Of a stretch of 64,000 nt of DNA, positions 1 through 41,642 are shown one piece after another. The DNA is from an uncultured Actinomycetes bacterium (GTDB lineage Bacteria; Actinomycetota; Thermoleophilia; RBG-16-64-13), in contig CAWJDT010000001.1 in assembly GCA_963841735.1 (NCBI GenBank), positions 224,001 to 288,000 of the forward strand, in the 5' to 3' direction. The first letter of the stretch is position 1, and the number at the start of each line of letters is the position of its first letter. The notes beneath the pieces are model-generated. The model was not told where the DNA came from, made no database searches, and worked only from the letters and a program-made list of their open reading frames with translations. The translations under genes were made by a program, and so were the position numbers.

Positions 1-137
1 ACCTTCTGCGGGTCGGCCTTCGCGAGGTCATCGATGACCACGTCAGCGCCGGCCTTAGCGAGTCCGAGCGCGATGGGACGGCCCAGTCCACCTGCGCCTC
101 CCGTAACGATCGCGACCTTACCTTTTAGATCGAACAT
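1..137 (-). CDS. short-chain dehydrogenase/reductase (SDR), 5' part only, runs off the window
   Basis: Not in the ORF track. Manual translation from ATG 137 gives [38 protein letters not shown] with the TGxxxGxG motif. RBS AGGAGGAGG at about 142-150. Confidence 0.85.
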
Positions 138-188
138 CAGACCTCCTCCTCTTTACCCAAGCTCAGTAAGTGTTGTTGTGTGCGACGG

Positions 189-1139
189 TCAGTTGTTGGC
201 CATGTAGAGCTGGAGCTGCTTGATCAGGACGAGGTTCTTCTCCTCCAGCACCTCTTCGCGCGTCCTGCCGCTGTAGTCGTACCAGCCCTTGCCCGACTTG
301 ATGCCCAGCTCGCCCTTCTCGACCTTCTCGGTGACCAGCTTGGAGGCCGTGGTCGCGTTACTCAGCCCGGGGAACACCCGGCCGGAGACGGTGGCGCAGA
401 TATCGAGGCCGATCATGTCGTCCACTTCCATGGGGCCTAGGCAGGCAAACCGGAAACCGGTGCTGCCCTTTATGGCTGTGTTCAGGTCCTCGGGAGTGCA
501 GATGCCCTCGTCGAGGATGAAGGCACACTCACGCGTGATGGCACCCATGACCCGGTTGACGATGAAGCCCGGCATCTCCTTGAGCACGAGGGCGGTCTTC
601 TTGCCCGACTCCTTCATCATGCGCTGGGTGAGATCGTAGGCGGCGTCGGAGGTCTTGGTGCCGCGATGAACCTCGACCAGCGGGATGATGTGGGCGGGGT
701 TGAAGTAGTGAATACCGATTATGGACGCGGGGTTCGGCATGCCCTCGGCCAAGGAATCCACCTTCATGCTGCCGGTGTTGCTGCCGATGACCACGTCCGG
801 GTTCACCGCTTGCAGGGCGCCTATGAGGGCCCGCTTGTCGTCGAGGTTCTCACGGATGGTCTCGACTACGTAGGTGACTCCTTCGAGGGCCTGAGCCATG
901 TCGGTGGTGACCATGCCCTCGACCCGACCCACAACGACGTCGGCGGGCTCTTTGATGAGGTCGAACTCGATGAACTGCTTGACGTTCTGCTTGATCTGGC
1001 TCATAGCCCGGGTCAGGGGCTCTTCGCGGCGGGCCACCAAACGCACCTGGAACCCGTTCTGTGCGAAGGTCTGTGCGATGCCCTCACCCATAGTCCCGGT
1101 GCCAACAACAAGTATCTTCTCTGCGTTCTTAGCGCTCAT
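189..1139 (-). CDS. 3-hydroxyacyl-CoA dehydrogenase family protein
   Basis: GTGTMG Rossmann motif, VETIRENLDDK, GSNTGS, catalytic HYFNPAH..PLVE, PGFIVNR, GPMEVDDMIGLD, G.LG.KSGKGWY. Confidence 0.93.
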   Translation of the reverse strand: MSAKNAEKILVVGTGTMGEGIAQTFAQNGFQVRLVARREEPLTRAMSQIKQNVKQFIEFDLIKEPADVVVGRVEGMVTTDMAQALEGVTYVVETIRENLDDKRALIGALQAVNPDVVIGSNTGSMKVDSLAEGMPNPASIIGIHYFNPAHIIPLVEVHRGTKTSDAAYDLTQRMMKESGKKTALVLKEMPGFIVNRVMGAITRECAFILDEGICTPEDLNTAIKGSTGFRFACLGPMEVDDMIGLDICATVSGRVFPGLSNATTASKLVTEKVEKGELGIKSGKGWYDYSGRTREEVLEEKNLVLIKQLQLYMANN

Positions 1140-1175
1140 ATGTCAGTCTCCCGCACTGTGGCTTTTCTTCTCGAC

Positions 1176-1248
1176 CCCATTAATTCACAAGTGGGGATTA
1201 GTGTCAAGGAATTGTTCATATTATGGTGACGCAGTTCACGTGCTGAAC
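1176..1248 (-). promoter_or_regulatory. conserved promoter plus tandem operator, copy 1
   Basis: Minus-strand TTGACA (1207-1202), N17, ATTAAT (1184-1179). Boxes GTTCATATTATGGTG (1214-1228) and GTTCACGTGCTGAAC (1234-1248). Same layout at 2318-2390 and 4467-4538. Confidence 0.8.
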
Positions 1249-1376
1249 AGACGACCTACAAACCCGCCCCGTCTCGCGGAGAGAGCCTGTGGGCACCAGA
1301 GCATTCCGGTCGGAAATGGGGAACGCCTTGGCGGACCCCATGCCCGCCAAGGCGTTCCGAAAACAAGCGTTAGAGC

Positions 1377-2232
1377 TTACTTCTGGTGCTGGGGACGATC
1401 CCCTACGAAGTCGGCGGCTATCTTGTCGAAATTGTGCCGAGTGGCCTCCAGGGCAACGGCGTACATCTCGGCCAGAACGTGAACGCGCTCATCGTCCTGC
1501 AACGCACGCTTCCACGGACGCATGACGAGCTCATGGGTCAGGCGGCGAACAGGCCGGCCTGTCTTCATGATGTGCTTGGCGATCTCATAGGCACGCGGGA
1601 TGAGCTGATCGTGCTCGACGATCTCGTTAATAAGACCCCACTCCAGGGCGGTCTTGGCGTCGATCTTCGGCTCCATGTACGCCATGTAGGCGGCCCGCTT
1701 CTGCCCGACGCAGACGCGGTAGGAGAAGTTCATGCCGTCGCCGGGAACGATGTTGTGCGAGAAATGGGCGTCGGAGAAGTAGAAGTCCGGGACGCACAGT
1801 GCGATGTCCGCCATGAGCGCGAACTCGTAGTGCTGCCCGATGCCATTGATGGCCCCGATGACTGGGACTTCGATGTCGTTGATGAAATTCTCGACGAAGT
1901 TCATCGTATCCGGGACATTGCAGTTGTACTTGAGAGCAGTGTCGTTGGAATCTTCGACTTCATCGAAGGAGGCGGGATCGCTCTTCTGCGTGATCCAGTA
2001 GGGGTCGGCGCAGGTCAGGATGATGACCTCGTTCTGCTTGTCATGCCCAATGGCGGTCCAGAGTTCGCCGTAGGTCATCTGAGTCTGGTAGCTCCAGACA
2101 CAAGCCTCGCCCTTCCAGTGAAGGCGGCAGAAACAGAATACCGTCCTCGGTACGCTCCATGTGAGCGAAATCCTTGAACCGCTCGCTGTATTCCTCCAGC
2201 GTTTCCACGTGAACATATGGCTGTAGTGCCAT
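1377..2232 (-). CDS. crotonase-superfamily protein, 6-oxocamphor hydrolase-like, with one frameshift near 2131
   Basis: ORF 2041..2232 (MALQPYVHVETLEEYSERFK...DGILF) joins ORF 1377..2258 (CRLHWKG...) if one A is removed from the AAA run at 2131-2133. Motifs EVPVIGAING..QHYE and HFSHNIVPGDG. Paralogue at 3432 is intact. Confidence 0.85.
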
Positions 2233-2317
2233 GGATACTTCCTCCTTGTTCCAATCAACTCATGACCGTGTTCTGGAGCTGGTGCCCAGTTCTCCCACGT
2301 TTGGACACTCTTCTTGC

Positions 2318-2390
2318 CCCATTAATCCACACGTGCGGACTAGTGTCAAGAAACTGTTCATGTTATGATGGTAAAGTTCATGTGATGAAC
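2318..2390 (-). promoter_or_regulatory. conserved promoter plus tandem operator, copy 2, in the divergent region upstream of iclR
   Basis: ATTAAT 2321-2326 and TGTCAA 2344-2349 with a 17-bp spacer. Boxes GTTCATGTTATGATG 2356-2370 and GTTCATGTGATGAAC 2376-2390. Confidence 0.8.
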
Positions 2391-2434
2391 AGTATGCGAC
2401 CCTGGGCAGCCGGCCAGCGCGCGGAAGGAGTGTT

Positions 2435-3268
2435 GTGCCTCCCAAGCCAGAGAGAGCAGATCGAGCGGCCATCTATCAGGTGAGAGTACTTGATAGAGCC
2501 ATAGATATCCTCGACGCCTTCACGCTGCGCCGAACAGACCTGAACATCCGCGAGATCGTCGAGGCTACCGGACTCAACCGATCGACCGCCATACGGCTCG
2601 TATCGAATCTTGAGCGCCGCGGACTCCTGCAGCAAACACCCACCACCAGCCGATACCGGCTCGGCCGTAGGCTCTTTGAGATGGGAAGCATCGTCTACTC
2701 GTCGCTGTCGCTTGTCGAGGCGGCAGCCGGGCCTCTCTCGGGCCTCGAAAGGCAATCGGGCGCCACCATCTTTCTGGCGGTCCGCAACGGCGACTACTCT
2801 GTCACGGTCGACCGCCGGCAAGGCGTTGGTGACGGATTCGCCATGGTGCCGACACCAAGCGAAGTGGGGACCGTTCGCCCCTTGCCCTACGGGCCGGTTG
2901 GCCAGGTCTTCATGGCGACGCTCACCCCAGAAGCCCTTGATGCACTGCTGAACAAGTATCCCCTCGAGCAGTACACCCCCTACTCCATCATGGACCGCGA
3001 CCGGTTTGTCGAACGACTTCCGCTCATTAGAAGTGAGGGATACGCAATCGAAGTCAACGAGGTGGTGGAGGGCCTGATGGGAATAGCTGCTCCTATATTC
3101 GACTTCGCCGGCAACACGGCCGGCGTTCTGTCCTTGGGCTTGCCCGCGACGCGGGAGAACGACAAGGCCTTCCTGGATGCGGCCATCCGCAACCTCAAGC
3201 AAGCAGCCGCCGAAATATCGGCCAACATGGGCTATCCCGGCAGTACCGACGCGGTCGAGGGATCCTAG
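2435..3268 (+). CDS. IclR-family transcriptional regulator
   Basis: VRVLDRAIDILDAF, HTH (EIVEATGLNRSTAIRLVSNLERRGLL), YRLG, C-terminal GYAIEVNEVVEGLMGIAAPIFD...LSL effector domain. Confidence 0.95.
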   Translation: MPPKPERADRAAIYQVRVLDRAIDILDAFTLRRTDLNIREIVEATGLNRSTAIRLVSNLERRGLLQQTPTTSRYRLGRRLFEMGSIVYSSLSLVEAAAGPLSGLERQSGATIFLAVRNGDYSVTVDRRQGVGDGFAMVPTPSEVGTVRPLPYGPVGQVFMATLTPEALDALLNKYPLEQYTPYSIMDRDRFVERLPLIRSEGYAIEVNEVVEGLMGIAAPIFDFAGNTAGVLSLGLPATRENDKAFLDAAIRNLKQAAAEISANMGYPGSTDAVEGS

Positions 3269-3316
3269 GCCCGGCAAAGACTGCCTGGCAGGGCGCGCTC
3301 TCGGGGATCAAAGAAG

Positions 3317-3350
3317 ACAGCCCCCCCGCCCGAGCGGCGGTAGGGGCTGT
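3317..3350. terminator. hairpin between convergent iclR and crotonase genes
   Basis: ACAGCCCC...GGGGCTGT outer stem with an inner CCGCC/GGCGG stem and A/T-rich flanks. Confidence 0.6.
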
Positions 3351-3431
3351 TCTGTAAGTGACAGGCGTGGAATCAGACGGTCCTCTGATATCCCTCTTCA
3401 CGCGGCGATCAAGCAAGCACTGGCGACTTAT

Positions 3432-4280
3432 CTACGCCTTCATCATCTTGTCGTCGGAATACTCGATGGTGTCGAAGTCGTGGTGCGACTTCTCCAGGTT
3501 GAACGAGTACATCTCGGCGTAGACATGCTGGCGGATGTTCTGCTCCACCAGTTCCCGCCAGGGGCGCGCGCACACGTGGTGGCTGAGGCGCCGGGTGGAA
3601 CGGTTGGTCTTCATGAGATGCCGGGCGATCTCCCAGGCGCGCTCTTCGATCTTGTCGCGCTCGACGACCTCGTTCACCGCACCCAGCTTGAGGCAGGTAT
3701 CGGCGTCGAGGCCCTTGTTCATCAGGCTCATGTAATTGCCGCGCTTGATGCCCAGCACGTACTGCAGAGCCAGGGTCATGCCGTCCCCGGGCACATGCCC
3801 GCCCGCATGGACGAAGTGGTCGTCCTGCAGGATGAAGTCCGGGGTGCAGAGGGTGATGTCGCTCATCATGGCCATCTCCCAATGGATGCCCTGACCGGTG
3901 ATGGCACAGATAGTGGGGATCTCGATATCGTTGACGAAGTTCTCGACCACCTTGAGGGTGTCGTAGATCTGGACGTTGAAGCGCGGGATGTTGTCCGGGT
4001 TGTCCTCGATGTCCTTGAAGGAGGAGGCGTCCACATCGTTGATCCACTGGTCACCGGTTGCGGTGAAGATGAGGACCTCGTTATTGGTGTCGTGCCCTAT
4101 CGCGGTCCACAGTTCGGAGATGGCGTGGTGCATCTGGTAGCTCCAGCGCACCGGCCCGTCGAGGGTATGCATCTTGACCTCAAGGATGCCGTCTTCCGAG
4201 CGCTTGAACTTGAAGAACCTCTTGAAGCGCTCCGAGTACTCCTCCAGCGTGGCCATATGAACGTAGTCTTGTTCTGCCAT
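3432..4280 (-). CDS. crotonase-superfamily protein, 6-oxocamphor hydrolase-like
   Basis: TLEEYSERF...DGILEVKMHT..GPVRWS, EIPTICAITG..IHWE, QDDHF...VPGDG, LDADTCLKLGAVNEV. Start taken at the ATG of MAEQD. Confidence 0.88.
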   Translation of the reverse strand: MAEQDYVHMATLEEYSERFKRFFKFKRSEDGILEVKMHTLDGPVRWSYQMHHAISELWTAIGHDTNNEVLIFTATGDQWINDVDASSFKDIEDNPDNIPRFNVQIYDTLKVVENFVNDIEIPTICAITGQGIHWEMAMMSDITLCTPDFILQDDHFVHAGGHVPGDGMTLALQYVLGIKRGNYMSLMNKGLDADTCLKLGAVNEVVERDKIEERAWEIARHLMKTNRSTRRLSHHVCARPWRELVEQNIRQHVYAEMYSFNLEKSHHDFDTIEYSDDKMMKA

Positions 4281-4466
4281 TCCTACCAACTCCTATCGAT
4301 TGAGTTTCGGCTATTCGCGGCGTGCGCCACAAGTCACAGATTGAACCTTTGGCGGGCGGAGGCCTGCGCGGTGGCTTCACCCATGGTCCCCGGGCCCACG
4401 ATCAGCACCATCTGCTTGTTGCCCGGACTCAGGCCCCTACCTCCGACGCAGAGCGTCGTACTTGTG

Positions 4467-4538
4467 CCCATTAATTCACATCAAAGCACTAGTGTCAACA
4501 AGAGTTCATAGTATGATGCCGGTGGTCATGTGCTGAAC
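4467..4538 (-). promoter_or_regulatory. conserved promoter plus tandem operator, copy 3
   Basis: ATTAAT 4470-4475 and TGTCAA 4493-4498 with a 17-bp spacer. Boxes GTTCATAGTATGATG 4504-4518 and GGTCATGTGCTGAAC 4524-4538. Confidence 0.78.
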
Positions 4539-4638
4539 AACGCACGGTCCCGGCTCTCCGGTAGCCTATGATCTGACGCCAAGACGCCGCCCTGTGATAT
4601 ATTGCGATATAACGTATTAGACCGACGGAGGTCAAGCA

Positions 4639-4937
4639 ATGCACAACAAGAAGGGTCACCACCCCGGACACGGCCAAGCCGGCGGCAAGCCGGACACGGC
4701 AAGGCAGGACACGGCCACGGTGGCCACGGCCATCATCACCCAGGCTCTTCGCCTGAACAAGATCACCACGATCCCGCGCGGCAGCAGTCGTTCGCCGGCC
4801 CGTCGCACACCGGCGCGCCCGAAGCGAGCCACTCCGGACAGGCAGTGTCGTTTCCCCCGGCTGAGGATTGCCCGAAAAGGGGCGGCTCGGCCGACTGCCC
4901 GAGAGATTGCCGCAACTGTCCAAACCACGGACTGTAG
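4639..4937 (+). CDS. small His/Gly-rich protein with a C-terminal Cys cluster, probable 1-nt frameshift near 4689
   Basis: RBS GGAGG 4627-4631 and ATG 4639 (MHNKKGHHPGHGQAGGK). Adding one G joins the frame of ORF 4602..4937 (AGHGKAGHGHGGHGHHH...CPKRGGSADCPRDCRNCPNHGL). Confidence 0.55.
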
Positions 4938-5068
4938 ACAAACACTGAGCCCCACCTAGACTATTGTGAACAGATCGAGGTTATTGAGGCACGGCACATG
5001 CTCATGTCCTTCTCGGTACTCACCTTGCAGGTATTCTGACCCACCAAGCCCGGCCTCTCGGCCTGCTC

Positions 5069-7744
5069 TCAGTCTTCAGCATCTCCCCCGCGCCATTTCT
5101 CCCCTTCTGCCAGCACTCGCTCGAATATCAAGCCGGCAGCTTGGCTGTAGGGCCGGCTGAATGCTTCCGGGAATTCCCTTCTTAGCGCCTCAAGATCGAT
5201 GGGGGCCACTTCCACCAGAAAGCCGCTGCTTGCCATGCCCGCGCAGTTCTTGGAAGTAATGCCGTGCGGCGAGATGGTGTTTATGGCGCCTCCCCTGTCG
5301 AGCACTCCCGGCGCAAGGAAGTCTTGCCTGGCCCCGTGGTCGACGTAGGCCACCCCGGGCATCACCCTTTCCATGACCCGAGCACCCACCAGGACCCCGC
5401 CCCTCTCGTTGAAGACCTTGCAGATGTCGCCGTCCGCGATGCCGCGTTTGGCGGCTTCCGAGGGATGCAGCCAGACCGGCTCATACATGTAGCCATCGGG
5501 CCCTTTGACCTTGCAGGTGGGGATCTCCCGGTTCCAGCTCAGATCATCCATCTGCGCGTGCACCCTGTGCCGGGGGTGGTTGGACATGCACAGCAGTGGA
5601 TATTCCTTGGCCCGCGCACTGGAGATCCGCTCGTCATGGAGCCTGCTCTTCTCCACCCAGTGCGGCACCGGCGGTCTTTCGTCATCGTCGGGGAAGTGCT
5701 TCTTCAAGTCTAGAGACTCGAACTCCAGCTTGCCCGACGGAGTGGAGAGCGGATTGGCCTCGGGATCGCGATAGAAGTCGTACATGCCCGCCGAGTAGGT
5801 CTCCCAGTTGGGATCGGACGGCACCACGTAGTACTGCTTCTCCTTGAAGGTCTCCCAGTCGAGCAGGCCTCTCTCGGGGATCCCGCTCTGGTCGAAGCCA
5901 TGTTTGATCCAATCCTGGATGCTCTTGCCCTCGGTGTACTCTTCGAGCAGGCCCAGCCTCTCGGCCACCATGCAGACGATCTCGTAGTCACTCTTCGATT
6001 CCCCCAGCGGCTCGATGCACTTGTGCTCCAGGTACACCATCTCGAAGGTGACGCTCTCGGTGTCGTCGCCTATGTCATCCTCCTCGAATTTGGTGCTCAC
6101 CGGCAGGATGAGGTCGGCAAAGAGACAGTCGTTTTCGAGCCAGGGATGCTGCGCCATGAAGAACTCTATGGAGGGATGCTGGAAGGCTTCGGCGATGCGG
6201 TTGCTGTCGTTCCAGCAGGTCATGAGGCAGGGCGTGTCGGTCCAGATCATGTGGATGGGCGAGCAGCCCTCGGCGGGATACTCGTACCTGATGAACTGTT
6301 CCGCGGCCGGGGTACTCTGCAGTGAGCTCCCGTTGACTACGAACTTGCCGTCGAGAATGGCGTCGTGGACCAAAGTCTTGGGGATCCATTGCTTCGGCAG
6401 CCCGGTGAACGGGAAAGGCGAGTAGCCCCGATACGCGGCCCTGATGTTCACGCTGGGGTTGTTGATGATGCTGCCCGGAGAGGGCGGAAAGGCCGGATGG
6501 TCTTCGGAGCCGAACACCGCCCGGTTGATGATGGCAAACGAATGCTGCCCCGGTTTGCCCAGCCCCTGCATGGCAAGCAGGGCGCCCTCCAGGCGGGCCG
6601 GCTCGTGCGAGTAGGGCCCCCGGATATAGGGCCCGCCCAAGCCGTGTACCACCGAGGTCCGTTGCTTGGCCCACGCTCTGGCGAGGGCTTTGATGGTCCG
6701 CGCGGGGACGTGGGTCTTCTGCGCCGCCCACTGCGGGGTCTTGGGCACTCCGTCATCCTTGCCCAACACATAGTCCGCGAAGGCTTCAAACCCGACGCTG
6801 TGAGTGGCCACGTATTCCTTGTCATACGTGTCGTTGACGATCCACTGGTAGGCGATGGCCAGCTGTAGCGCCGCGTCGGTGTTGGGCAGTATGGGTATCC
6901 ATTTGTCGGCGAACACGGCGGCACCGTAGTTCAGGTCCGGGCACACATAGATCTGCTTGATGCCGAGGTCCTTCCAGAAGCTGCAGAACCGGCCGACGTA
7001 GTCGCCGGCGCTGAACCCCCGCGTGGTCGTGACAGGATCGCAGCCCCAGAACAGCAGCAGATCGCTGTTGCGCGAGATGTCCGGATACACGTTGGTGGGG
7101 CTGGGCATCAAACCGAAAGGCTCGCCCCCCCAGAAATGCTTTGTGCCCCAGTACCAGCCCTCCCAGCTGTCCGCGTTGCGCACCTGCAGCGTGCAGCCAC
7201 CAAGCATGTCCAGCAGCCTCACCTGGCATCCATGCGGCCCGTGAACCGACTTGGTCTCACCGTGGCCGTCGGCCTGGGCGAACACAGCCCAAGGGCCGTA
7301 CTTCTCGATGACCCTTTTCAGCTCCCCGGTGATGATATCCAGAGCCTCGTCCCAGGAGATCCTCGCGTAGCCGCTCTTGCCCCGATTCTGAGCATTCCGC
7401 CCGCCCTGGCCGGTGGAGCCGGGAGCCCCATTCGGATCCCAGTCGACCCGCTTGAGCGGATACAAGATGCGGTTGGGGGAGTAGATGCTCTTCTTGTAGC
7501 CCAGGCCGAAAGGACCGATGGTGGTCTTCAGCGGCACGTCAAAGATCTTGCCCCGGGCTTCGATCTTCCAGGGCCGGAACTCCTCCGGCTTGTACTTCCA
7601 GTCGTAGGGCAGTGGTCTGATACGCACGATCTTGCCGTCCTTGACGTCCACCGCCGCAACGTGCGAACCGATGCTGAAAGCGCAGAGACCGGTGCTCTTG
7701 ATGTATGTCTGCTCTGCGCCGGTGCTTTCTTCCTTCTCTGTCAT
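5069..7744 (-). CDS. bis-MGD molybdoenzyme large subunit, pyrogallol transhydroxylase (AthL)/resorcinol hydroxylase-like
   Basis: VDVKDGKIVRIRP..W.IEARGK N-terminus with no Fe-S motif and no Tat signal. RNADSWEGWYWG carries the Ser ligand motif. Also TPSGKLEF, NHPRHRVHAQ and a C-terminal MGD-binding domain. Confidence 0.9.
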   Translation of the reverse strand: MTEKEESTGAEQTYIKSTGLCAFSIGSHVAAVDVKDGKIVRIRPLPYDWKYKPEEFRPWKIEARGKIFDVPLKTTIGPFGLGYKKSIYSPNRILYPLKRVDWDPNGAPGSTGQGGRNAQNRGKSGYARISWDEALDIITGELKRVIEKYGPWAVFAQADGHGETKSVHGPHGCQVRLLDMLGGCTLQVRNADSWEGWYWGTKHFWGGEPFGLMPSPTNVYPDISRNSDLLLFWGCDPVTTTRGFSAGDYVGRFCSFWKDLGIKQIYVCPDLNYGAAVFADKWIPILPNTDAALQLAIAYQWIVNDTYDKEYVATHSVGFEAFADYVLGKDDGVPKTPQWAAQKTHVPARTIKALARAWAKQRTSVVHGLGGPYIRGPYSHEPARLEGALLAMQGLGKPGQHSFAIINRAVFGSEDHPAFPPSPGSIINNPSVNIRAAYRGYSPFPFTGLPKQWIPKTLVHDAILDGKFVVNGSSLQSTPAAEQFIRYEYPAEGCSPIHMIWTDTPCLMTCWNDSNRIAEAFQHPSIEFFMAQHPWLENDCLFADLILPVSTKFEEDDIGDDTESVTFEMVYLEHKCIEPLGESKSDYEIVCMVAERLGLLEEYTEGKSIQDWIKHGFDQSGIPERGLLDWETFKEKQYYVVPSDPNWETYSAGMYDFYRDPEANPLSTPSGKLEFESLDLKKHFPDDDERPPVPHWVEKSRLHDERISSARAKEYPLLCMSNHPRHRVHAQMDDLSWNREIPTCKVKGPDGYMYEPVWLHPSEAAKRGIADGDICKVFNERGGVLVGARVMERVMPGVAYVDHGARQDFLAPGVLDRGGAINTISPHGITSKNCAGMASSGFLVEVAPIDLEALRREFPEAFSRPYSQAAGLIFERVLAEGEKWRGGDAED

Positions 7745-7765
7745 CTTGCCCACCTGGTTTGGAGG

Positions 7766-8602: not shown

Positions 8603-8630
8603 GATGCCTGACCTTTGTTTGATGATTGCG

Positions 8631-11935: not shown

Positions 11936-11969
11936 GATCCCCCACCTTCGTGGGAGAGAAGAAGAACAA

Positions 11970-26932: not shown

Positions 26933-26949
26933 CGCTTTACCCACCGGCC

Positions 26950-27909: not shown

Positions 27910-27948
27910 CTAGAACACCCGAGGTGGATAGCAGTTCTTTAGAGCAGC

Positions 27949-28015
27949 GCGATCTGAGCCGGCGGGCAATAACGTAACGGTGTGGCTGCCAAAGTAACCG
28001 GCCGGCTCAGATCGC
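27949..28015 (-). other. intercistronic RNA stem-loop after the substrate-binding gene, cassette 1
   Basis: Perfect 15-bp inverted repeat GCGATCTGAGCCGGC / GCCGGCTCAGATCGC. Confidence 0.75.
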
Positions 28016-28050
28016 ATCAAATCAATATCCCTTGCTTCTATCGCTGATTT

Positions 28051-29742: not shown

Positions 29743-29957
29743 CACCCCTCCATTCAAGAACCCGATGTTGGCTCGCTCTCATCTTTGTCCGTCCTACCGC
29801 TCACTCGCTTCGCCCCATGCGCCCGCTCCTTTAGCTATGGAGGAACACGGAAGAACCGCAGTTGAGCCGTCATGTTTCATTGGACAGAACAAAGCGGCTA
29901 AGACCGTCTCGGCGGCCCGCCGCTGCAGCGGGACTCGCTCTCCAAAGATCTCCACCG

Positions 29958-30018: not shown

Positions 30019-30305
30019 TTGCCGCCCGTGACGCCGTGCAGTCCACGTGGGAAGGCCGACCGACTTGTTCGCTTCCAAGAAGTTCGTGCTCCCTCGCTTC
30101 TCTCGGCCAAACGCTCCTGGTAATAGCCGACTAATGAGCTTCTCGTGGGCAAGTTCCTGGTGATGTGACCATAGGCCCAGAACATTTTGCCAGGCCAGAT
30201 ACCCCGGCCGCGCGAGACGAGCAACGAGCATGGCAAGTCCGCCGTTGTATAGCAAGCTTACTCGAACTCCTCTTCTAGTAGCGTATGGTGGGCTATACTG
30301 CTTTC

Positions 30306-33231: not shown

Positions 33232-33253
33232 GGTGTCCTTGAGGCCGTGGTTT

Positions 33254-34150: not shown

Positions 34151-34184
34151 ACAGATTCTCCGTATTCCTCAGAAACAACACGCT

Positions 34185-35147
34185 CTACCTGTAGCTCTCT
34201 CTGATTCGCGGGTCCAGCCACGCATAGGCCATGTCCACCAAGAGGTTTGCAATAACGATCACGAGCGCCATGAGCAGGACGACACCCTGTACCGCCGGGT
34301 AGTCTCGGTCCATGACTCCGCCGGCCAGCATCCCTCCGACACCGGCGATGCCGAACACCCTCTCGACGAAGACAGCGCCCCCGAACATGAAGCTGACCTG
34401 CATGCCCATTGTGGTGACGACGGGTATCAGACCATTCTTCACTATATGCCGTCGGACGACGGTCTTCTCCTGCAGACCTTTGGACCAGGCTGTGCGGATG
34501 TAATCCTGGTGGGAGACCTCGAGCATGCTCGAGCGCGTCTGCCGCGTTTGCGCCGCGATACCGAATACGGCCATGCAGAGCACCGGCAGGATCGCCTGCC
34601 GCACGTGCTCACCGAAGTTGTCAAAGGGAGACACGTACCCCTGCGAGATGCTCACCCAGCCCAGTTTCAAGCCAAAGATGTACAGGAAGACAATGGCGAT
34701 CCAGAAACTGGGCAACGTTATCCCCAGATTAGCCGTCACGCTCACGACAGTATCGGGCCACTTGCCCCTTCGAATCGCGGCTATCACTCCGAGCGTCGGT
34801 CCAAGCAGGGAACTCACTATGAGCGCCAAGATGCCCAGGTTGAGGGTGATCGGGAGCCTCTCCTTTATCATCTGGCTCACAGGGGTCTGATAGTAGATGG
34901 ACTCTCCCAGGTCTCCTTTCAAAACGCCGCCGATCCAATCGAAGTACTGGGCTATGAGAGGCTTGTCTAGGCCATAGTCCTGCCTGAGTTTCTCGAGTTC
35001 TTCCTGGCTGTAGTTGGTGTAGTCCTCGCCGAGAACGGTGCGCAACGGGTCACCCGGCAACCAGTGCATCATGATGAACACCAATATGGTGACCACGAAC
35101 ATGACGACGACGCCCAGGAACAGGCGGCGGATGATGTAGCTTGTCAA
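34185..35147 (-). CDS. ABC permease (OppB-like), cassette 2
   Basis: PGDP, GDLGES, QDYIRTAWSKGL, RDYPAVQG, LDPRI. Confidence 0.95.
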   Translation of the reverse strand: MTSYIIRRLFLGVVVMFVVTILVFIMMHWLPGDPLRTVLGEDYTNYSQEELEKLRQDYGLDKPLIAQYFDWIGGVLKGDLGESIYYQTPVSQMIKERLPITLNLGILALIVSSLLGPTLGVIAAIRRGKWPDTVVSVTANLGITLPSFWIAIVFLYIFGLKLGWVSISQGYVSPFDNFGEHVRQAILPVLCMAVFGIAAQTRQTRSSMLEVSHQDYIRTAWSKGLQEKTVVRRHIVKNGLIPVVTTMGMQVSFMFGGAVFVERVFGIAGVGGMLAGGVMDRDYPAVQGVVLLMALVIVIANLLVDMAYAWLDPRIRESYR

Positions 35148-35184
35148 CTAGACCGCCCGGCAGTTCGCTGTCATGTAACGCAGC

Positions 35185-35250
35185 GCGATCCGAGCCAGCG
35201 GCCACACCAAGGCAGCATCACTGCGGGAGTAGCCCACCGACTCAGATCGC
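35185..35250 (-). other. intercistronic RNA stem-loop after the substrate-binding gene, cassette 2
   Basis: Homologue of 27949-28015. On the minus strand GCGAUCUGAGUCGG pairs with CUGGCUCGGAUCGC using G-U pairs. Confidence 0.7.
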
Positions 35251-35282
35251 ATAAGACTGGTAATCCGTGCCCTCACACCTGG

Positions 35283-36980
35283 CTACTTGCTGAGCCAGGC
35301 TATCTCGGGCAAGAACTCGCCAACTGTGTTGTTACCAAAGCCGTAGTCGTGCACCGCGGGCGACTTTGCGACAAGGCCCTCGTTGACCATGAAGGGCACC
35401 ACAAGGCAGAAGTCGTCCACCGCGATCTTGTTCAACTCTTGGTACAAGATCTCGCGCTTCGCCAGATCGTTCTCGACCTTCATCTGCCTGTAAACCGCGT
35501 TGAACTCTTCGGGGATCCAGATGTCGACGAATATGGGCGAGTCCTCACTGAAGTTCCCGCCGAGAGCGGTGGAGTACTGCATCTCGATTCCGTTATAGGA
35601 AAGGTCCGTCAGGATCAGCTCGTCCTTGAAGCCGTTCTCTGCCATGGCCTTCTGGGCCGGGAAGTTCTGACCGTTCAGTTCGAGATTGATGCCTACCACT
35701 TTCAGGTAATCCTGTATGACCGTCATGACTTGGCTTTCGTCCCCGGCCTGGATGATGTAGGTGAATCTCACATTCCACGGGTTCTCCGGGCTGATGTTGA
35801 ACTTGGATTCGGCCAACAGCTGCTTGGCTTTGGCCACGTCGTACGGATGGCCCGTGATAGCCGGGTTGTAGGCCTGCATGCCCTCGGCGGCCAGCTGCAT
35901 CGTGGGGAACATGAAGTCCCCGTATACACCCTTCACAATCGCATCCACGTCTAGGGCATAGGCCATAGCCTCACGGACCTTCTGATCTGAGAAGGGACAG
36001 GTATCGCTCTTGCTGTCCCCGCCGATCGACCACACCGAGAACACGCGAGTGTCCACGGTATACCCGTCTGCCAATAGGCCCTTGGCGTTGGCAGCACTGA
36101 CTCCGTAGAGTGCGTTGGCCTCTCCGTTCTGAAGTGCCATGAGAGAAGCCATGGAGTCGCTCACCAACCGGATCTCCACGCCGTCCAGATAGGGGAGCCC
36201 CGGCTGCCAATAGTCATCAAAGCGCTCGAACTTGAGAGAGCGCGCGGTCTTGTACTCAGCGAACTTGAAGGGCCCGGTGCCCACCGGATGCATCATCGCT
36301 TCCTTGTCGCCCATGGCCTCGACGGCGGCGGGAGAGACCATCTTGCCGGCGCCGCTCGAGTTCAGGCCCTGCAACCACAGAGGATCCCACGCCGAGAAGC
36401 TAACAAGCACTGTGTAGCTGTCCACTACCGTGACATCCGTTACGTCCGCCAGGTCCTTCTTGTCGCTTTCAAAGCGCCACTTGTCAAAATTCCACTTGAC
36501 CGCGTCAGCATTGAAATCGGTGCCATCGTGGAACTTGACACCCTCACGTAGGTGGAAGGTGATGGTCTTCGCAGCTTCGTCGATATCCCAACTCGTGGCC
36601 AACTGCGGAACCGGGTTCCCTTCCGCGTCCAGACCAATGAGGTTCTCGACCGCATACCGGGACATCTGCACATCCGTGAAGCCGGTCTGTAGCCAGAAGG
36701 CCCCGAGGTTGGTCGGAGCAGCGTAGTGAAGCAGCACAAGCGTTCCCCCATACTGAGGCGCGTCGCCACTCGCGGGTCCCTGAGGAGCCTCAAGGGCGCT
36801 TCTGACAACCCCACCCTCAGTGGTAGTCGCGCCCCCGGTGGGCCCAGTCGCATCACTCGAGGAGGTACTGGATTGGGAAGTAGTAGTCGTGGCGTCCCCT
36901 CCGCAGGCGGCCACCAAAACCGCCAGCAGAACCACCCCCAACACACATCCAAGCAACACCAACAAACGCCTAGACTTCAT
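35283..36980 (-). CDS. family-5 ABC substrate-binding lipoprotein, cassette 2
   Basis: Lipobox LVAAC, PQLATSW, LREGVKFHDGTDFNA, PVGTGPFKF. Diverged paralogue of 28051..29742. Confidence 0.95.
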   Translation of the reverse strand: MKSRRLLVLLGCVLGVVLLAVLVAACGGDATTTTSQSSTSSSDATGPTGGATTTEGGVVRSALEAPQGPASGDAPQYGGTLVLLHYAAPTNLGAFWLQTGFTDVQMSRYAVENLIGLDAEGNPVPQLATSWDIDEAAKTITFHLREGVKFHDGTDFNADAVKWNFDKWRFESDKKDLADVTDVTVVDSYTVLVSFSAWDPLWLQGLNSSGAGKMVSPAAVEAMGDKEAMMHPVGTGPFKFAEYKTARSLKFERFDDYWQPGLPYLDGVEIRLVSDSMASLMALQNGEANALYGVSAANAKGLLADGYTVDTRVFSVWSIGGDSKSDTCPFSDQKVREAMAYALDVDAIVKGVYGDFMFPTMQLAAEGMQAYNPAITGHPYDVAKAKQLLAESKFNISPENPWNVRFTYIIQAGDESQVMTVIQDYLKVVGINLELNGQNFPAQKAMAENGFKDELILTDLSYNGIEMQYSTALGGNFSEDSPIFVDIWIPEEFNAVYRQMKVENDLAKREILYQELNKIAVDDFCLVVPFMVNEGLVAKSPAVHDYGFGNNTVGEFLPEIAWLSK

Positions 36981-37088
36981 CACCCCTCCATTCAAGAACC
37001 TACTGCTGGCTAATCCTCGCTCTTGCCTACCCTGCTGCCCATCAATCGTCTAGCTCCATGCACCTGCTCCATTGGCTCACCGCCAGCG

Positions 37089-37388: not shown

Positions 37389-38474
37389 CTACTTTACTAC
37401 CAGCTGAGCGGGATCGGTCAGTTCGATCTCGCCCTTGCCCTGGAACGTGTTCTCGTAGATGGCGCCAGTGACGGTGACCGTCTTGCCGACCAGAGTGTTC
37501 AGATCGCCGAAGGCGGCGATGTTCGCGTACGCGACCATGCCGTTGAAGCCAGCGCCGTCATCAGCGCTGTCAAGCTGGATCAGCCACTTCTCAGCCCCTG
37601 CCAAGTCCACAACACCGGCGACCGTTCCGGTCACGGAACCTTCCTCGCCATAGTGTGCTTTCGCCTCATCGGCGGTGTAAGCGGCGGCTTCCACAATCTT
37701 CAGCTGAGCGGCCTCGGTAAGCAGAATCTCAGCCTTGAGCTCGAACGCGTTCACGTACACCTCGCCGGTGACCTCAACGGTCTTGCCGATCAAGGCCTGC
37801 AGGCCGGCAGCGCCACCGAAAGCGTCGGCGCTGGCATATTCGACTGTGGCGTTGAAGCCGTCGTCGCCCTCAGAGCCGATCTGCAAGATGTACTTGTCGA
37901 TGCCTGCGCCCTTGTCAACCACAGCCATGACCGGTCCGGTCACAGTGGCGGTCGTACCTTCAAGGTCCAGAGCCGCATCCCAATTGGTGGCCGCAGCGGC
38001 AGCCGCGGAGGGACCAACCAGCTTGAACTGAGCCGCGTCGGTGAGCAGGATCTCAGCCTTGAGCTCGAACGCGTTCACGTACACCTCGCCGGTGACCTCA
38101 ACGTCCATCCCCACCAAAGCGCTCAGGGCAGCCATGCCGCCGAAAGCGTCGGCGCTGGCATACTCGACTGTGGCGTTAAAGCCGTCGTCGCCCTCAGAGC
38201 CGATCTGCAAGATGTACTTGTCGATGCCTGCGCCCTTGTCAACCACCGCGAGCACAGGGCCGGTGACCGTTACGGTCTCGCCCTCATGGTCGATGGCCTG
38301 ATCCCAAGGAACTGTGACAGCGGCAGCGACGGTAGTCGTCGGTGCTTCTGTCGTCGGTGCTGCTGTCGTTGTCGGTGCCACTGTCGTTGTCGTTTCCTCA
38401 GTCCCACCACATCCGGCGAGAACAAGGCTTCCCAAGAGAACTACCGCTACGAACAGTACGAACAACTTCTTCAT
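37389..38474 (-). CDS. lipoprotein with Thr-rich linker and three tandem OB-fold-like repeats
   Basis: MKKLF...LVLAGC lipobox. Three repeats of W..A....G..VTVTGPV..VVD...KYILQI...FNATV...LVG..VEVTG.VY.N.F..K.EI.LT..AQ. Confidence 0.8.
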   Translation of the reverse strand: MKKLFVLFVAVVLLGSLVLAGCGGTEETTTTVAPTTTAAPTTEAPTTTVAAAVTVPWDQAIDHEGETVTVTGPVLAVVDKGAGIDKYILQIGSEGDDGFNATVEYASADAFGGMAALSALVGMDVEVTGEVYVNAFELKAEILLTDAAQFKLVGPSAAAAAATNWDAALDLEGTTATVTGPVMAVVDKGAGIDKYILQIGSEGDDGFNATVEYASADAFGGAAGLQALIGKTVEVTGEVYVNAFELKAEILLTEAAQLKIVEAAAYTADEAKAHYGEEGSVTGTVAGVVDLAGAEKWLIQLDSADDGAGFNGMVAYANIAAFGDLNTLVGKTVTVTGAIYENTFQGKGEIELTDPAQLVVK

Positions 38475-38767
38475 TACGTACCCCTCTCCTTTGTCCCGCA
38501 TACGAGTTCGTATACGAAGTTGGACCAGCCTAAACAGACTAGACGTTCCGTCGTCGTCTGTCAATCGGAAGAAGACGGGTTTCGTTCATCCACCTTCGTA
38601 GATGCACTTCGGAGCATATCGCGGCCGGGCCGGCAAGAGAGGTACTGTGCGCTTGAACGAGCCAGAAACCTGCGACCTGAAAACGGCAGACCTGCACATG
38701 AGCCGAGCGCGCTAGGATGTATCCGAGGCAACAGTGGCAAGCGTGACGAGTCTGGAGCCTGAGCACT

Positions 38768-39454
38768 ATGGACCATCTGGAGGAATACAAATCATCACCC
38801 CCCATCCGGGTGCTGATCGCGGATGACCACGACCTGATACGCCAGGCTCTGAGAACGGTGATCGACAACGAGCCCGATATGGAGGTGGTGGGCGAGGCCG
38901 CAGACGGCGAACAAGCGGTCGCCCTGGCTGCCAGACTCAACCCCGACGCAGTGATCATGGACATAGAGATGCCCAACATGTCGGGAGTCGAGGCCACCAA
39001 ACAGATCAAGGCGGTGTTGCCCAGCGTCATCATCATCGTTCTAACAGTCCACGACAGCAACGAGTACATCCTTCGGATCCTTGAGGCAGGAGCCGCGGGA
39101 TATCTGACCAAGACTGTCATCAGCAAGGATATCCCCGCCGCGATACGCTCCGCCCTTAAAGGGGAGTCCATATTGTCCGAGGAGATCCTCAAGAAGCTGC
39201 TTGCGTATGCCCTGCGCTACCCGACAAAACGCCACGCCACGATTCTCGAAAGCCCTCTTACCGAGCGCGAGCTCGACATCCTCAGACTCGTAGCCCAAGG
39301 CGCCAGCAACAAGAGTATCGCCGCCCAGCTGACGCTCACCGAGAACACTATCAAGAAGTACATGATGAACATCTTCGCCAAAGTCGGAGCCACCTCCAGA
39401 ACCGCGGCGGTGATCAATGCCCAGCAGAACGGGCTGCTCCCGCCGAATGACTAG
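38768..39454 (+). CDS. NarL/LuxR-family response regulator
   Basis: IADDH, MDIEMP, GYLTK, LTERELDILRLVAQGASNKSIA HTH. Confidence 0.95.
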   Translation: MDHLEEYKSSPPIRVLIADDHDLIRQALRTVIDNEPDMEVVGEAADGEQAVALAARLNPDAVIMDIEMPNMSGVEATKQIKAVLPSVIIIVLTVHDSNEYILRILEAGAAGYLTKTVISKDIPAAIRSALKGESILSEEILKKLLAYALRYPTKRHATILESPLTERELDILRLVAQGASNKSIAAQLTLTENTIKKYMMNIFAKVGATSRTAAVINAQQNGLLPPND

Positions 39455-40589
39455 GCCCGCAAGACCGGGCCGCTCGGTGGCGGATCCACTTTCCCGCGTG
39501 CGAAGGTACCGCTACCTGCACTATGGGGTACTTCTTGTCAGCACCGCGGCCATACTCTTTCTCTACTACGCATACGAGAGCCATATGCCCACGCCGTCGG
39601 GGCACTATTTATCTTGGTTTTGGAGTGTGTTCTATTTCGAGTTTCGCAATGATGTCATCGGCCTTTTGATGCTGTTTCCTATACTATACTCGGCCATAAC
39701 TTTGGGCTGGAAGCGCGCAACAATCGTTGTGATAATACTTATTGCTTCTATCTTTCCCTATATTGTTACGTTCTCTTATAAGCCGTACAGCTGGATAGCT
39801 AGCTTTGGCTGTCTTCTCATACCACCGACAGTCATCATCAGTATCGAGATGAAACTGATGTCGGACGCAAGGGAGCGCAGAGCGGAAGAGGAGAAACACC
39901 GGGAAAAAGCCGAGTTCATGAGACAGCTCATTTCTGTGCAAGAGGATCTGCGGAAGCGCATAGCACAAGAGTTGCATGACGGCGTCGCCCAGAGTCTGCT
40001 GGTCACCGCGAGCGTCGCCCACAACATGCTGGACGACGGCCGGGTAGCAGACGAGGCCGTGAGAACAGAACTGGAGGCTATAAAGAGGCACAGCCTCGAG
40101 ATGGTGTCCGAGGTGCGGTCCATCTGTCAGGATCTCAGGCCCAGCGTGTTGGACCATCTGGGCCTCGTCTCCTCGATCAAGTGGCTCATCGACAACCTGT
40201 GCGAAGAGACAGGGATCAGGGTCGAGTATGAATCCGAAGGCACCGATTTCGAGTCAACACCAGACGAGAGCCTGGCGTTGTTCAGAATCGTTCAGGAGGC
40301 GCTGAACAACGTCAAGAAACATTCTCAGGCCGACACGGTCCATGTCTCCATAGCGGCCGGCGCAGACGGTATCTCCATCCAGATAAGGGACAACGGTAGG
40401 GGATTCCAGCTGCCGCAGACATACGGCCGGCTCGCGCAAAGCGGCAAGCTGGGCCTCCTGGGGATGGCCGAAAGAGCGCAGTACATCGGAGCCTTGCTGG
40501 AGATCAAGCCCGCGGAGGGCATGGGCACCACTGTAAGCATCTCTGCCCCCCGGAAGGCGCCTCAAGGTTCGACGGAGACCGGCGGATAG
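39447..40589 (+). CDS. membrane sensor histidine kinase (HisKA_3 type)
   Basis: N-terminal TM segments, RKRIAQELHDGVAQ, LRPSVLDHLGL, FRIVQEALNNV.KH, DNGRGF, GLLGMAER. Confidence 0.93.
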   Translation: MTRPARPGRSVADPLSRVRRYRYLHYGVLLVSTAAILFLYYAYESHMPTPSGHYLSWFWSVFYFEFRNDVIGLLMLFPILYSAITLGWKRATIVVIILIASIFPYIVTFSYKPYSWIASFGCLLIPPTVIISIEMKLMSDARERRAEEEKHREKAEFMRQLISVQEDLRKRIAQELHDGVAQSLLVTASVAHNMLDDGRVADEAVRTELEAIKRHSLEMVSEVRSICQDLRPSVLDHLGLVSSIKWLIDNLCEETGIRVEYESEGTDFESTPDESLALFRIVQEALNNVKKHSQADTVHVSIAAGADGISIQIRDNGRGFQLPQTYGRLAQSGKLGLLGMAERAQYIGALLEIKPAEGMGTTVSISAPRKAPQGSTETGG

Positions 40590-40598
40590 ACCTTTCGC

Positions 40599-41642
40599 CT
40601 ACTGCTCGGCCAACCGCCTGAAGTAGTCGTAGATGTCCTGGGAGGGTCCTTTGCCGGCATTCGCGGCTATCCATTTCTGGGCTGAGGGCTCGAAACAATC
40701 CATCCATAGCTCCAACTCGCCGGCGTTAGGCTCGACCACCGTCTGGCCCGCGCATTTCTGCCAGCCTCCGGCCTCCACCTCGAGGCTGGCGCTGCGAAGC
40801 CTCTCCTCGAACCACGGGCTGAGGGCGTCTATGGCCGCCCTCACTTCGTCGGGAAGCCCGTTCCAGACATCCCAGTTCATGGCCACTACAATACCGCCCT
40901 GGCCGAGCCCCAGATCCAGATGGCTGTCGAACGTCTCCTCCATACCCCTGTCGGTGACGACGTACACCGGCGCCATGCAACCCACGATCACGCCCTTTTG
41001 CGCAGACATAGCCCAATCCCCCGACGATATGTCCACCGGAGTAGCACCGGCAGCTTCGAGCACCAGGACGCTGTCACCCATGGAGGCTATCTTCATGCCC
41101 TTAATGTCGTCCGGGACGTGGATCTCCTTGTCGCTCACGTGTATGGACGTGTTCGTCGCGAGCGATCTGGCGAGGATCTTCACGCCGCCCATCTCCGCGG
41201 ACATCTCAGGGAATCTCTCCAGAAGCCTGTCCCAGATCTGCCTACCTCTGCCGTTGGGTACCGCGACGGACCCCAAGGTGACTACGCTGTTCAGACTCCA
41301 CTGCTTCGCCACATACGCGAGGTTGATCATGGCAATATCGCAGACGCCGCCCTCGGTGGCTTCAAGAGCTTCCCCGCCCTTGGCCAAGCTCTCGGCTGGA
41401 TAGATGGTGAACCTCACCCGGCCGCCGGTGGCTTCTTCGACCTTCCTGGTCCACTCTTCCATGGCCAGCGCAGGCGGAGCCGTCGAAGGGATGTGGTGGC
41501 TGACTTTGAGCTCGTAGACCCCGGCGGAAGCAGCGCTGCCGGTCTGCTCTTGGCCGGCACAGCCCACAACCAGCACACCTGCGGCCAACATCGCGGTCAG
41601 ACAGGCAAGCGGCAAGCTGGGCAATAACCGCGGCTTTTTCAC
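40599..41642 (-). CDS. TRAP transporter substrate-binding lipoprotein (DctP-like)
   Basis: Lipobox VVGC, LKVSHH, VEEATGGRVRFTIYPAESL, PDDIKGMKI, MNWDVWNGLPDEVR. No DctQM in the window. Confidence 0.85.
   Translation of the reverse strand: MKKPRLLPSLPLACLTAMLAAGVLVVGCAGQEQTGSAASAGVYELKVSHHIPSTAPPALAMEEWTRKVEEATGGRVRFTIYPAESLAKGGEALEATEGGVCDIAMINLAYVAKQWSLNSVVTLGSVAVPNGRGRQIWDRLLERFPEMSAEMGGVKILARSLATNTSIHVSDKEIHVPDDIKGMKIASMGDSVLVLEAAGATPVDISSGDWAMSAQKGVIVGCMAPVYVVTDRGMEETFDSHLDLGLGQGGIVVAMNWDVWNGLPDEVRAAIDALSPWFEERLRSASLEVEAGGWQKCAGQTVVEPNAGELELWMDCFEPSAQKWIAANAGKGPSQDIYDYFRRLAEQ

Follow-up and report, generated by a model that had tools for sequence, protein, structure and literature searches.

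Does the first 41.6 kb of this stretch encode one anaerobic pathway for tannin- or polyphenol-type compounds, or does it bring together gene sets with separate histories? The stretch, called the window here in its whole length of 64,000 nucleotides, is contig C1:224,001-288,000 of an uncultured soil- or sediment-type actinobacterium. A first, sequence-only reading had seen in it a candidate undescribed pathway leading from a tannase homologue through transhydroxylase-like molybdenum (Mo) enzymes to ring opening and 3-hydroxyacyl-CoA steps. How tannins and other polyphenols are turned over without oxygen matters for carbon storage in peat and sediment and for gut and rumen chemistry. The 41.6-kb stretch appears to be a mosaic of three separately inherited modules, namely module A (window 1-11,252 together with C1:217,306-224,000, ~7 kb leftward), module B (11,468-16,086, a MarR/NADH-flavoprotein/Mo-enzyme/FeS unit) and module C (16,143-41,640, a tannase/flavoprotein/Opp-ABC/LuxR-HK/TRAP unit). 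Module A, which holds two crotonases, is on balance probably a paralogue, in altered form, of the pyrogallol/phloroglucinol fermentation set; its substrate would be related but not the same, or its cofactor regime different.

The host genome of 2.82 Mb lies in 8 contigs (63% G+C, completeness 89.7%). Genes were picked by codon-position G+C and then scanned against Pfam, PDB and NCBIfam. Family assignments, residue conservation, synteny and co-occurrence are established from these data, and from them we infer all substrates and all reactions discussed below. Contigs of the host genome are labeled C1, C5 and C6; G012, G001, G006 and G013 are congeners and G069 is another genome of the phylum. 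All gene classes listed by the sequence-only reading (tannase, two transhydroxylase-like Mo enzymes, a third Mo enzyme, crotonases, a 3HCDH-family dehydrogenase, flavoproteins, three lipoproteins and regulators) were recovered at or near the places that it gave. The genes of module A within the window are as follows (E-values are for the family or structure named; FeS, iron-sulfur).

1-137, minus strand: PGR-like, NAD-type SDR, first ~45 codons of a 251-aa gene extending left to C1:223382 (adh_short_C2 1.6e-61)
189-1139, minus strand: TfD-like 3-hydroxyacid dehydrogenase of the 3HCDH family (3HCDH_N 1.1e-44)
1377-2232, minus strand: ECH1, crotonase of 6-oxocamphor-hydrolase type; open reading frame 1377-2258, true ATG at 2232 (PDB 1o8u 1.2e-26)
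2435-3268, plus strand: IclR regulator, divergent from ECH1 (IclR_C 1e-26); in the same place in relatives, with 64-76% identity
3432-4289, minus strand: ECH2, crotonase of beta-diketone-hydrolase type (PDB 2j5g 3.7e-34, 1o8u 2e-31)
5069-7753, minus strand: w1, divergent AthL-like Mo subunit (4v4c 8.3e-145)
7766-8692, likely start 8602, minus strand: BthL-like FeS subunit (Fer4_11 1e-27 and CarboxypepD_reg 1.3e-12)
8631-11252, minus strand: w2, divergent AthL-like Mo subunit (4v4c 3.6e-139)

The description of both crotonases as beta-diketone-hydrolase-like was borne out. Their best solved relatives are 6-oxocamphor hydrolase (OCH) of Rhodococcus (1o8u/1szo) and the beta-diketone hydrolase of Anabaena (2j5g/2j5s), although the similarity is moderate (E 1e-26 to 4e-34, 86-122 bits over ~210-245 aligned residues). 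Enoyl-CoA hydratases scored 1.5e-21 or weaker for ECH1, against 1.2e-26 for 1o8u, and 5.9e-09 or weaker for ECH2, against 3.7e-34 for 2j5g. The catalytic His/His/Asp set is kept: His122, His145 and Asp154 of OCH correspond to H143, H165 and D174 of ECH1, in columns that are invariant in 19/19 and 28/28 family members, and the H122A mutant entry 1szo confirms the OCH numbering. The two proteins share 46% identity, ECH2 belonging to a separate old clade. Both are predicted to be CoA-independent beta-diketone C-C hydrolases. They differ from OCH and the Anabaena enzyme in having a PGR-like SDR and a TfD-like dehydrogenase as genomic partners, a link which was not found in the literature searched.

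ECH1 is interrupted by a one-base frameshift near window 2123-2142, with the upstream frame encoding the N-terminus common to all homologues. Frame breaks also split nuoH/L/N-like fragments (window 54688-61493), an AthL-like gene at C1:207.5-210.1 kb, a DctM gene and a BKACE gene, the last in three pieces (C6:4628-5349). Together with the completeness of the genome these splits suggest indel errors in the assembly, real pseudogenes being the alternative, and an assembly error is accordingly plausible for the ECH1 frameshift.

The lower part of phloroglucinol degradation is already known. The pathway of Clostridium scatologenes comprises PGR, DPGC (dihydrophloroglucinol cyclohydrolase), TfD and TAL, and CsTfD lacks Lys56 and Asn221, the two CoA contacts of HBD (Zhou et al. 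2023; PMC10470551). With this published pathway module A shares the SDR, a 3HCDH without CoA contacts, a BKACE in an operon-like run and ATP formation at the level of acetyl-CoA. It differs in having two crotonases and a small cupin instead of a Cyclase-family DPGC, in its embedded transhydroxylase genes, in an Asp-Asp of the SDR where PGRs have TR(S/N), and in a Gly at the Ser117 position of the 3HCDH.

In an alignment with C. butyricum HBD (4kug) the window 3HCDH (TfD3) keeps His138 and Asn188 and shows the changes Lys56 to Leu, Asn221 to Gly and Ser117 to Gly, the last position being Ser in its two paralogues. The protein fits TfD better than a CoA-ester dehydrogenase. A BKACE gene, of the TAL family, lies 3.5 kb left of the window (C1:219515-220543; 1.2e-86). 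With this gene present and the two CoA contacts missing, the 3-hydroxyacyl-CoA steps of the sequence-only reading are better read as steps on free acids; CoA-ester beta-oxidation by the crotonase/3HCDH pair was rejected in view of residues and family relations.

The beta-2 strand of the SDR (SDR3) ends in VVIDD (VVIDDLAK), which agrees with the NAD-type Asp noted earlier. It shares 44-48% identity with three SDR paralogues in the genome, among which SDR_C5b reads VLSGRTMA at the cofactor site (an Arg-bearing LSGRT) and is of NADP type. The NADPH motif TR(S/N) of PGRs is absent from SDR3, the comparison being with the published motif. The sole NCBIfam model past its cut-off was a generic glucose 1-dehydrogenase subfamily (231 bits; cut-off 215).

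To the left of the SDR, on the same strand, follow in order a 113-aa cupin, an 883-aa AthL paralogue (AthL_L), the BKACE and both subunits of an ADP-forming acetyl-CoA synthetase; beyond these come genes for a MarR regulator, for a 384-aa protein without family assignment and for a 7-bladed lactonase. At a greater distance on this side lie TRAP transporter genes, a further AthL/AthL/BthL set, a thiolase and hydantoinase-type genes. The sequence-only reading had suggested that decarboxylase, thiolase and CoA-transferase genes be sought on this side: the thiolase was there, together with the genes named above and the remainder of the SDR, while the left flank held no UbiD and the flank genes scanned included no CoA ligase or CoA-transferase. 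The thiolase is of SCP-x type and adjoins an HMG-CoA-synthase-like/ChsH2 OB-fold fusion, and the hydantoinase-type genes, 30-38 kb left of the window, are one hydantoinase-A and two hydantoinase-B genes (acetone-carboxylase/oxoprolinase family). The lactonase and the 384-aa protein form a pair at C1:214278-216641, which recurs by crotonase genes in loci of Actinomycetota, Acidobacteriota and Oscillospiraceae (L010, L013, L016, L026, L031); a role in the hydrolysis of triacetate lactone is only a guess.

The large subunits w1 and w2 both carry the AhtL-like_1st domain PF21423 (46.0 and 48.7 bits, respectively; cut-off 27), followed by Molybdopterin and Molydop_binding domains. They resemble the Pelobacter acidigallici transhydroxylase AthL/BthL (4v4c) in this first domain, in His144 and the D-S-W stretch with the Mo-ligand Ser, and in having neither an Fe4S4 domain nor a signal peptide; their small partner, like BthL, joins Fer4_11 to a C-terminal beta-barrel domain. 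Ser175 (the Mo ligand), Asp174 and His144 reportedly act at the active site of AthL in the structural work of Messerschmidt and co-workers (2004), residue numbers being counted on the alignment. We take Tyr152, Arg153, Trp354 and Tyr404 to line its substrate pocket. While His144 and Asp174-Ser175-Trp176 are kept in both window proteins, the four pocket positions read Gly, Pro, deletion and Phe in w1 and Ala, Ala, deletion and Phe in w2, the alignment being gappy at 354-404. The altered active sites which the sequence-only reading had reported for several enzymes were indeed seen, as changed pocket or cofactor residues.

AthL_L scored 1172 bits to P. acidigallici AthL and keeps H144, Y152, R153, D174, S175, W176 and Y404, with W354 replaced by F. 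Mutual identities of w1, w2 and a further paralogue on C5, AthL_C5b, are 55-58% (w1-w2 58%), against 35-38% to the AthL-type paralogues AthL_L and AthL_C5; for w1 and w2 by themselves the latter range is 36-38%, w1 having 37% identity to AthL_L. The w1/w2 subfamily is very large and bears only a generic name, with 5656 proteins at E<=1e-50 among 8000 candidates scored. A further difference from P. acidigallici is that the window and its relatives (locus L012, for example) have two or three large subunits to a single small one. About 10 transhydroxylase-like paralogues, again with two or three large subunits to each small one, were counted in the genome, and these are concrete candidates for hydroxyl-shuffling steps among benzenetriols and benzenetetrols. 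The host genome, which has 12 AhtL-domain matches in 2.8 Mb, would be specialised on polyhydroxybenzenes.

A canonical cluster is present elsewhere in the same genome. Four Cyclase (PF04199) genes were found, at C1:499-501 kb, C1:712 kb and C5:129 kb, and the same search of the genome placed none in the window or up to 200 kb leftward. The cluster on C5 runs in the order BKACE, two SDRs (one of NADP type), TfD, Cyclase, AthL and BthL, and continues with an FMN reductase, a second BthL-like gene, an IclR regulator and a divergent AthL-like gene. Its AthL (C5:125974-128574) reached 1716 bits to the P. acidigallici enzyme, ~85% of the self-score by bits-per-residue ratio; so close a score in an actinobacterial host hints at gene transfer between phyla. 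A third set, IclR-SDR-BKACE-3HCDH (C1:146-149.5 kb, within C1:145953-151648), has neither Cyclase nor crotonase beside it and is followed by Fer4_11 and NrfD-type genes. On family assignments, module A is one of three paralogous SDR-TfD-BKACE sets, the one with crotonases in place of Cyclase. The earlier remark that no UbiD-type gallate decarboxylase lies in the window holds; four UbiD genes are located elsewhere in the genome. Two of these (C5:290,490-291,977 and C6:10,502-11,971) reach 385-389 bits against the VdcC model, whose cut-off is 650, and the UbiD proteins outside the window are candidate gallate decarboxylases.

A scan by family alignment, with one genome per species, gave 79 crotonase loci from several phyla. 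Because contig ends truncate many of the loci, the counts are lower bounds. A PGR-like SDR was present no more than 10 kb from the crotonase in 48 loci, a TfD-like 3HCDH in 50 and both in 45, and BKACE was found in 21, cupin in 25, AthL-like genes in 24 and Cyclase in 12. Among the 45 core loci with SDR and TfD, 15 had BKACE only, 10 Cyclase only, 2 both and 18 neither. Loci with ECH2 only (34) held an SDR in 31, TfD in 29, Cyclase in 10 and BKACE in 4. The nearest of the 79 loci belong to metagenome-assembled genomes of uncultured Actinomycetota, Thermoleophilia and Actinomycetes. These have the recurring order AthLw2-AthLw1-BthL-IclR(-)-ECH-TfD-SDR-cupin-(AthL_L)-BKACE-AcdB-AcdA, in which the first ECH is ECH1 or ECH2. 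In a FastTree phylogeny of 92 crotonase copies three clades were resolved, namely an ECH2-type clade of Pseudomonadota and Actinomycetota, a Chloroflexota type mostly adjoining AthL/BthL genes, and an ECH1-type clade of Bacillota, Actinomycetota and Acidobacteriota. All five of the other crotonase-bearing genomes examined (loci L042, L051, L057, L017 and L024) have, as does the host, a Cyclase-BKACE pair elsewhere, the two genes lying a few kb apart in the five.

The coexistence of a canonical cluster with module A, in the host and in the other genomes checked, leads us to read module A as serving a different substrate or cofactor regime. Taken together with the three parallel sets, the NAD-type SDR and the Ser117 to Gly change of TfD3, it favors a related but different substrate; the variant substrate suggested by the sequence-only reading is likewise the interpretation that best fits this coexistence. 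In such a scheme, Mo transhydroxylase-type enzymes (AthL_L, with its pyrogallol-site residues kept, and the two divergent AthL-like subunits, with one shared BthL-like subunit) would rearrange a polyhydroxybenzene to a phloroglucinol-like 1,3,5-triol, which the NAD-type SDR would reduce to a cyclic 1,3-diketone. ECH1 and ECH2 would then cut the beta-diketone C-C bond by CoA-independent retro-Claisen hydrolysis, most likely opening the reduced ring. The TfD-like 3HCDH would oxidise the resulting free 3-hydroxy acid, BKACE would cleave the 3-keto acid with acetyl-CoA, and ATP would be gained through the ADP-forming acetyl-CoA synthetase.

The conserved, multi-phylum module joining OCH-type crotonases to PGR-like and TfD-like enzymes is what seems to be new. 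A bolder proposal, which we put forward tentatively and rate as short of probable, is that the crotonase-SDR-TfD module represents a distinct, widespread and undescribed ring-fission route for a phloroglucinol analogue, with OCH-type crotonases as the physiological ring openers; in this lineage it would be coupled to three transhydroxylase-type large subunits sharing one small subunit, an arrangement fitting sequential transhydroxylations. Brune and co-workers (1992) reportedly described the conversion of hydroxyhydroquinone or tetrahydroxybenzenes to a 1,3,5-triol by sequential transhydroxylations, for which no genes are known to have been assigned. Hydroxyhydroquinone as the direct substrate of the SDR was considered and rejected: by our own reasoning, hydrolysis of 4-hydroxycyclohexane-1,3-dione would yield 2- or 4-hydroxy-5-oxohexanoate, neither of them a 3-hydroxy acid and hence no match for the TfD/BKACE pair, so that the idea was kept only in the form of transhydroxylation first. 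To our knowledge, the Cyclase-family DPGC is the only ring-opening enzyme type tied to phloroglucinol. If the crotonase module were a second ring-fission route, a new marker would have to be added to annotation tools, the DPGC reported missing in some cases might be accounted for, and enzymes of the 6-oxocamphor-hydrolase class would acquire a mainstream role in physiology. The claim that the pathway is undescribed is to be narrowed: the lower pathway was published in 2023 (PMC10470551), and no description of the crotonase-coupled variant was found in the literature searched. Likewise, a search of freely available main texts yielded no paper in which phloroglucinol or transhydroxylase genes were connected with a crotonase-type diketone hydrolase or with Eggerthellaceae; the supplementary cluster tables of PMC10470551 may list such neighbors.

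Several observations weigh against this interpretation of module A. The frameshifted ECH1 may be a pseudogene instead of the product of an assembly error. Neither Cyclase nor BKACE lies near the crotonase in 18 of the 45 core loci, and the 10 with Cyclase and no BKACE, which are marine Proteobacteria, fit a role on a linear diketone (triacetate) as well or better. The cupin, present in 25 of the 79 loci, is a second candidate for a step. The loci are mutually related, not independent, and their counts express association only. Moreover, W354 is the only pyrogallol-site residue checked that AthL_L does not keep; pyrogallol may therefore simply be its substrate, and the C5 cluster and module A may share one function.

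This last point leads to the rival that survives best, which we nevertheless regard as unlikely. Here module A would degrade pyrogallol/phloroglucinol itself, the crotonase being a non-orthologous substitute for the Cyclase-type DPGC and the SDR/TfD pair using NAD(H) and not NADP(H). Besides the residues of AthL_L, the position of the crotonase, which is that of Cyclase in the C5 cluster, speaks for such a replacement, as do the NAD type of SDR3 beside the NADP type of SDR_C5b and the PGR without DPGC that a 2026 preprint reports for SAR116 genomes. A replacement predicts a complementary distribution, however, and the coexistence seen in the host and in 5/5 other crotonase-bearing genomes, where a Cyclase gene lies beside a BKACE gene elsewhere, counts against it; the three parallel SDR-TfD-BKACE sets of the host also stand on that side.

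It is improbable, in our estimate, that the crotonases open no ring at all and hydrolyse a linear beta-diketone acid, either triacetate or an analogue of it, to acetoacetate and acetate, replacing BKACE or working beside it. This alternative draws on the marine gamma- and alphaproteobacterial loci, which have the order Cyclase x2-(cupin)-SDR-TfD-crotonase and lack a BKACE over a distance of 10 kb, and on the 34 ECH2-only loci, of which 10 hold a Cyclase and 4 a BKACE. In Actinomycetota and Bacillota, on the other hand, the crotonase is paired with BKACE without Cyclase (the 15 core loci with BKACE only), and there no ring hydrolase would then be nearby. The altered copy of the fermentation set, with crotonases as likely ring openers, is therefore kept as the preferred reading of module A.

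Rightward of module A, module B consists of four genes on the plus strand.

11468-11935, plus strand: MarR regulator of the Mo3 unit (MarR 5.4e-12)
11970-13346, plus strand: Pyr_redox_2 flavoprotein, likely the NADH-side electron donor (Pyr_redox_2 2.3e-44; best NCBIfam PadH, 182.6 bits, cut-off 475)
~13343-15586, plus strand: Mo3, soluble bis-molybdopterin-guanine-dinucleotide (bis-MGD)-type Mo enzyme with Molybdop_Fe4S4, Molybdopterin and Molydop_binding domains and no signal peptide
15583-16086, plus strand: four-cluster-type FeS subunit of Mo3 (Fer4_11 1.2e-22)

The flavoprotein, Mo3 and FeS subunit genes are joined by four-base overlaps, and the module may provide an accessory NADH-linked soluble Mo enzyme. 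The best solved relative of Mo3 is acetylene hydratase (1.7e-65, 225 bits), with formate dehydrogenases close at 220 bits. No orthologue was present in the 5 congeners searched, where the best match had 33-39% identity; among 400 other genomes of the phylum, orthologues (73% and 68% identity) were found only in G069, with the flavoprotein-Mo3-FeS trio kept. Mo3 as a member of the pathway was considered and dropped, as its neighbors in G069 (a holin-like protein, an MFS transporter, a URO-D family protein and DUF1641) gave no lead. On contig C38 of G069 (locus L113, 9209-12562) a 66-68%-identical Mo3 copy with its FeS subunit adjoins a URO-D-family gene. The URO-D family includes methyltransferases used in anaerobic O-demethylation.

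Module C occupies the rest of the 41.6 kb.

16143-16520, minus strand: RidA/L-PSP family protein (Ribonuc_L-PSP 4.2e-18)
16616-18046, minus strand: tannase homologue without signal peptide (6yq4 6.5e-71, 4j0c 2.5e-63)
18109-19800, minus strand: GltD-like NAD(P)H FeS flavoprotein (Fer4_20 and Pyr_redox_2; NF009410, generic NAD(P)-binding, 483.6 bits, cut-off 516)
19724-21541 and 21971-23950, minus strand: two Sdh/Frd/Apr-like flavoproteins (mutual identity 26%)
21557-21937, minus strand: 2x[4Fe-4S] ferredoxin between the flavoproteins
23967-29757, minus strand: Opp/Dpp-type ABC system 1 (F, D, C, B and a lipoprotein binding protein at 28051-29757)
30285-31001, plus strand: TetR regulator (TetR_N 7.6e-07)
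31049-36995, minus strand: Opp/Dpp-type ABC system 2 (binding lipoprotein 35283-36995), a diverged tandem copy of system 1
37389-38564, minus strand: lipoprotein of no known family (no Pfam or NCBIfam family; lipobox LAGCGG)
38768-39454, plus strand: LuxR-type response regulator
39417-40589, plus strand: HisKA_3 kinase, kept like the preceding gene by Opp genes in G012 and G001
40599-~41640, minus strand: TRAP (DctP) binding lipoprotein (DctP 1.2e-28; lipobox); the longest open reading frame wrongly runs into tRNA-Thr 41675-41747

The tannase homologue is similar over its full length to the bacterial tannases of Lactiplantibacillus plantarum (4j0c) and Fusobacterium nucleatum (6yq4). Its nucleophile motif GCSAG (GxSxG) and C-terminal His (AAHCID) align with those of 6yq4. 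The RHGxxDxD stretch of the structure, on the other hand, is matched by RRGTGESG, with Asp to Glu and Asp to Gly changes which are kept in four orthologues of ~72% identity, paralogues of 52-53% having RHGTxDxF. We take the acidic residues of RHGxxDxD to have catalytic and gallate-binding roles. Galloyl-type esters might be taken up by the Opp-type ABC system and the TRAP binding protein and be hydrolysed by this cytoplasmic tannase variant, and the linked flavoprotein/ferredoxin/GltD set would carry out a reduction.

Orthologues of the tannase (71-72% identity) were found in 4/15 genomes of the same genus searched. The run HK-LuxR-OppABCDF-(Flavo2-Fd)-Flavo1-GltD-tannase-DctP is conserved in three of the four congeners compared (G012, G001 and G006) and was not seen in G013. 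In seven short metagenome loci examined for the flavoprotein context, GltD-Flavo1 stood by an AthL-like gene in one and OppBCDF-Flavo1 was kept in one, the tannase being reached in none. One coordinated tannin-to-acetate pathway over the 41.6 kb, with CoA-ester steps by crotonases and 3HCDH, is highly improbable and is rejected, for although one stretch, and for the most part one strand, carries all its gene classes, and same-genus genomes with a tannase orthologue also have crotonases, the tannase is 1.15 Mb from the ECH1-type gene in G012 and on another contig in G001 and G013, Mo3 has only its distant matches in the congeners, the 3HCDH has lost its CoA-contact residues, the crotonases align best with CoA-independent hydrolases, and the flank genes scanned offer no CoA ligase or CoA-transferase. 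The region as such is related to polyphenols, and its first 11 kb follow the logic of pyrogallol, phloroglucinol and ring fission; synteny in the congeners contradicts a single contiguous pathway.

In GC content no module stands apart from the genome as a whole (mean 0.633). The flavoproteins, Mo3, ECH2, the cupin and two unknown proteins did not reach a cut-off in NCBIfam. The two Opp operons form a 7.2-kb tandem duplication whose proteins are 62-82% identical, except that the D subunits are 100% identical over 324 aa (DNA at least 97% in the stretch compared); this identity amid diverged copies looks like gene conversion. Lipoboxes were found in all three binding proteins.

An Rfam scan matched the tRNA alone. 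This tRNA-Thr (CGT; window 41675-41747) lies exactly where the catabolic genes give way to those of housekeeping (PSP1, holB, tmk and topA). Beyond it, at window 51293-52624, lies a gene for a protein with CWB2 cell-wall-binding, TIG and NlpC/P60 domains, which fits a monoderm cell wall.

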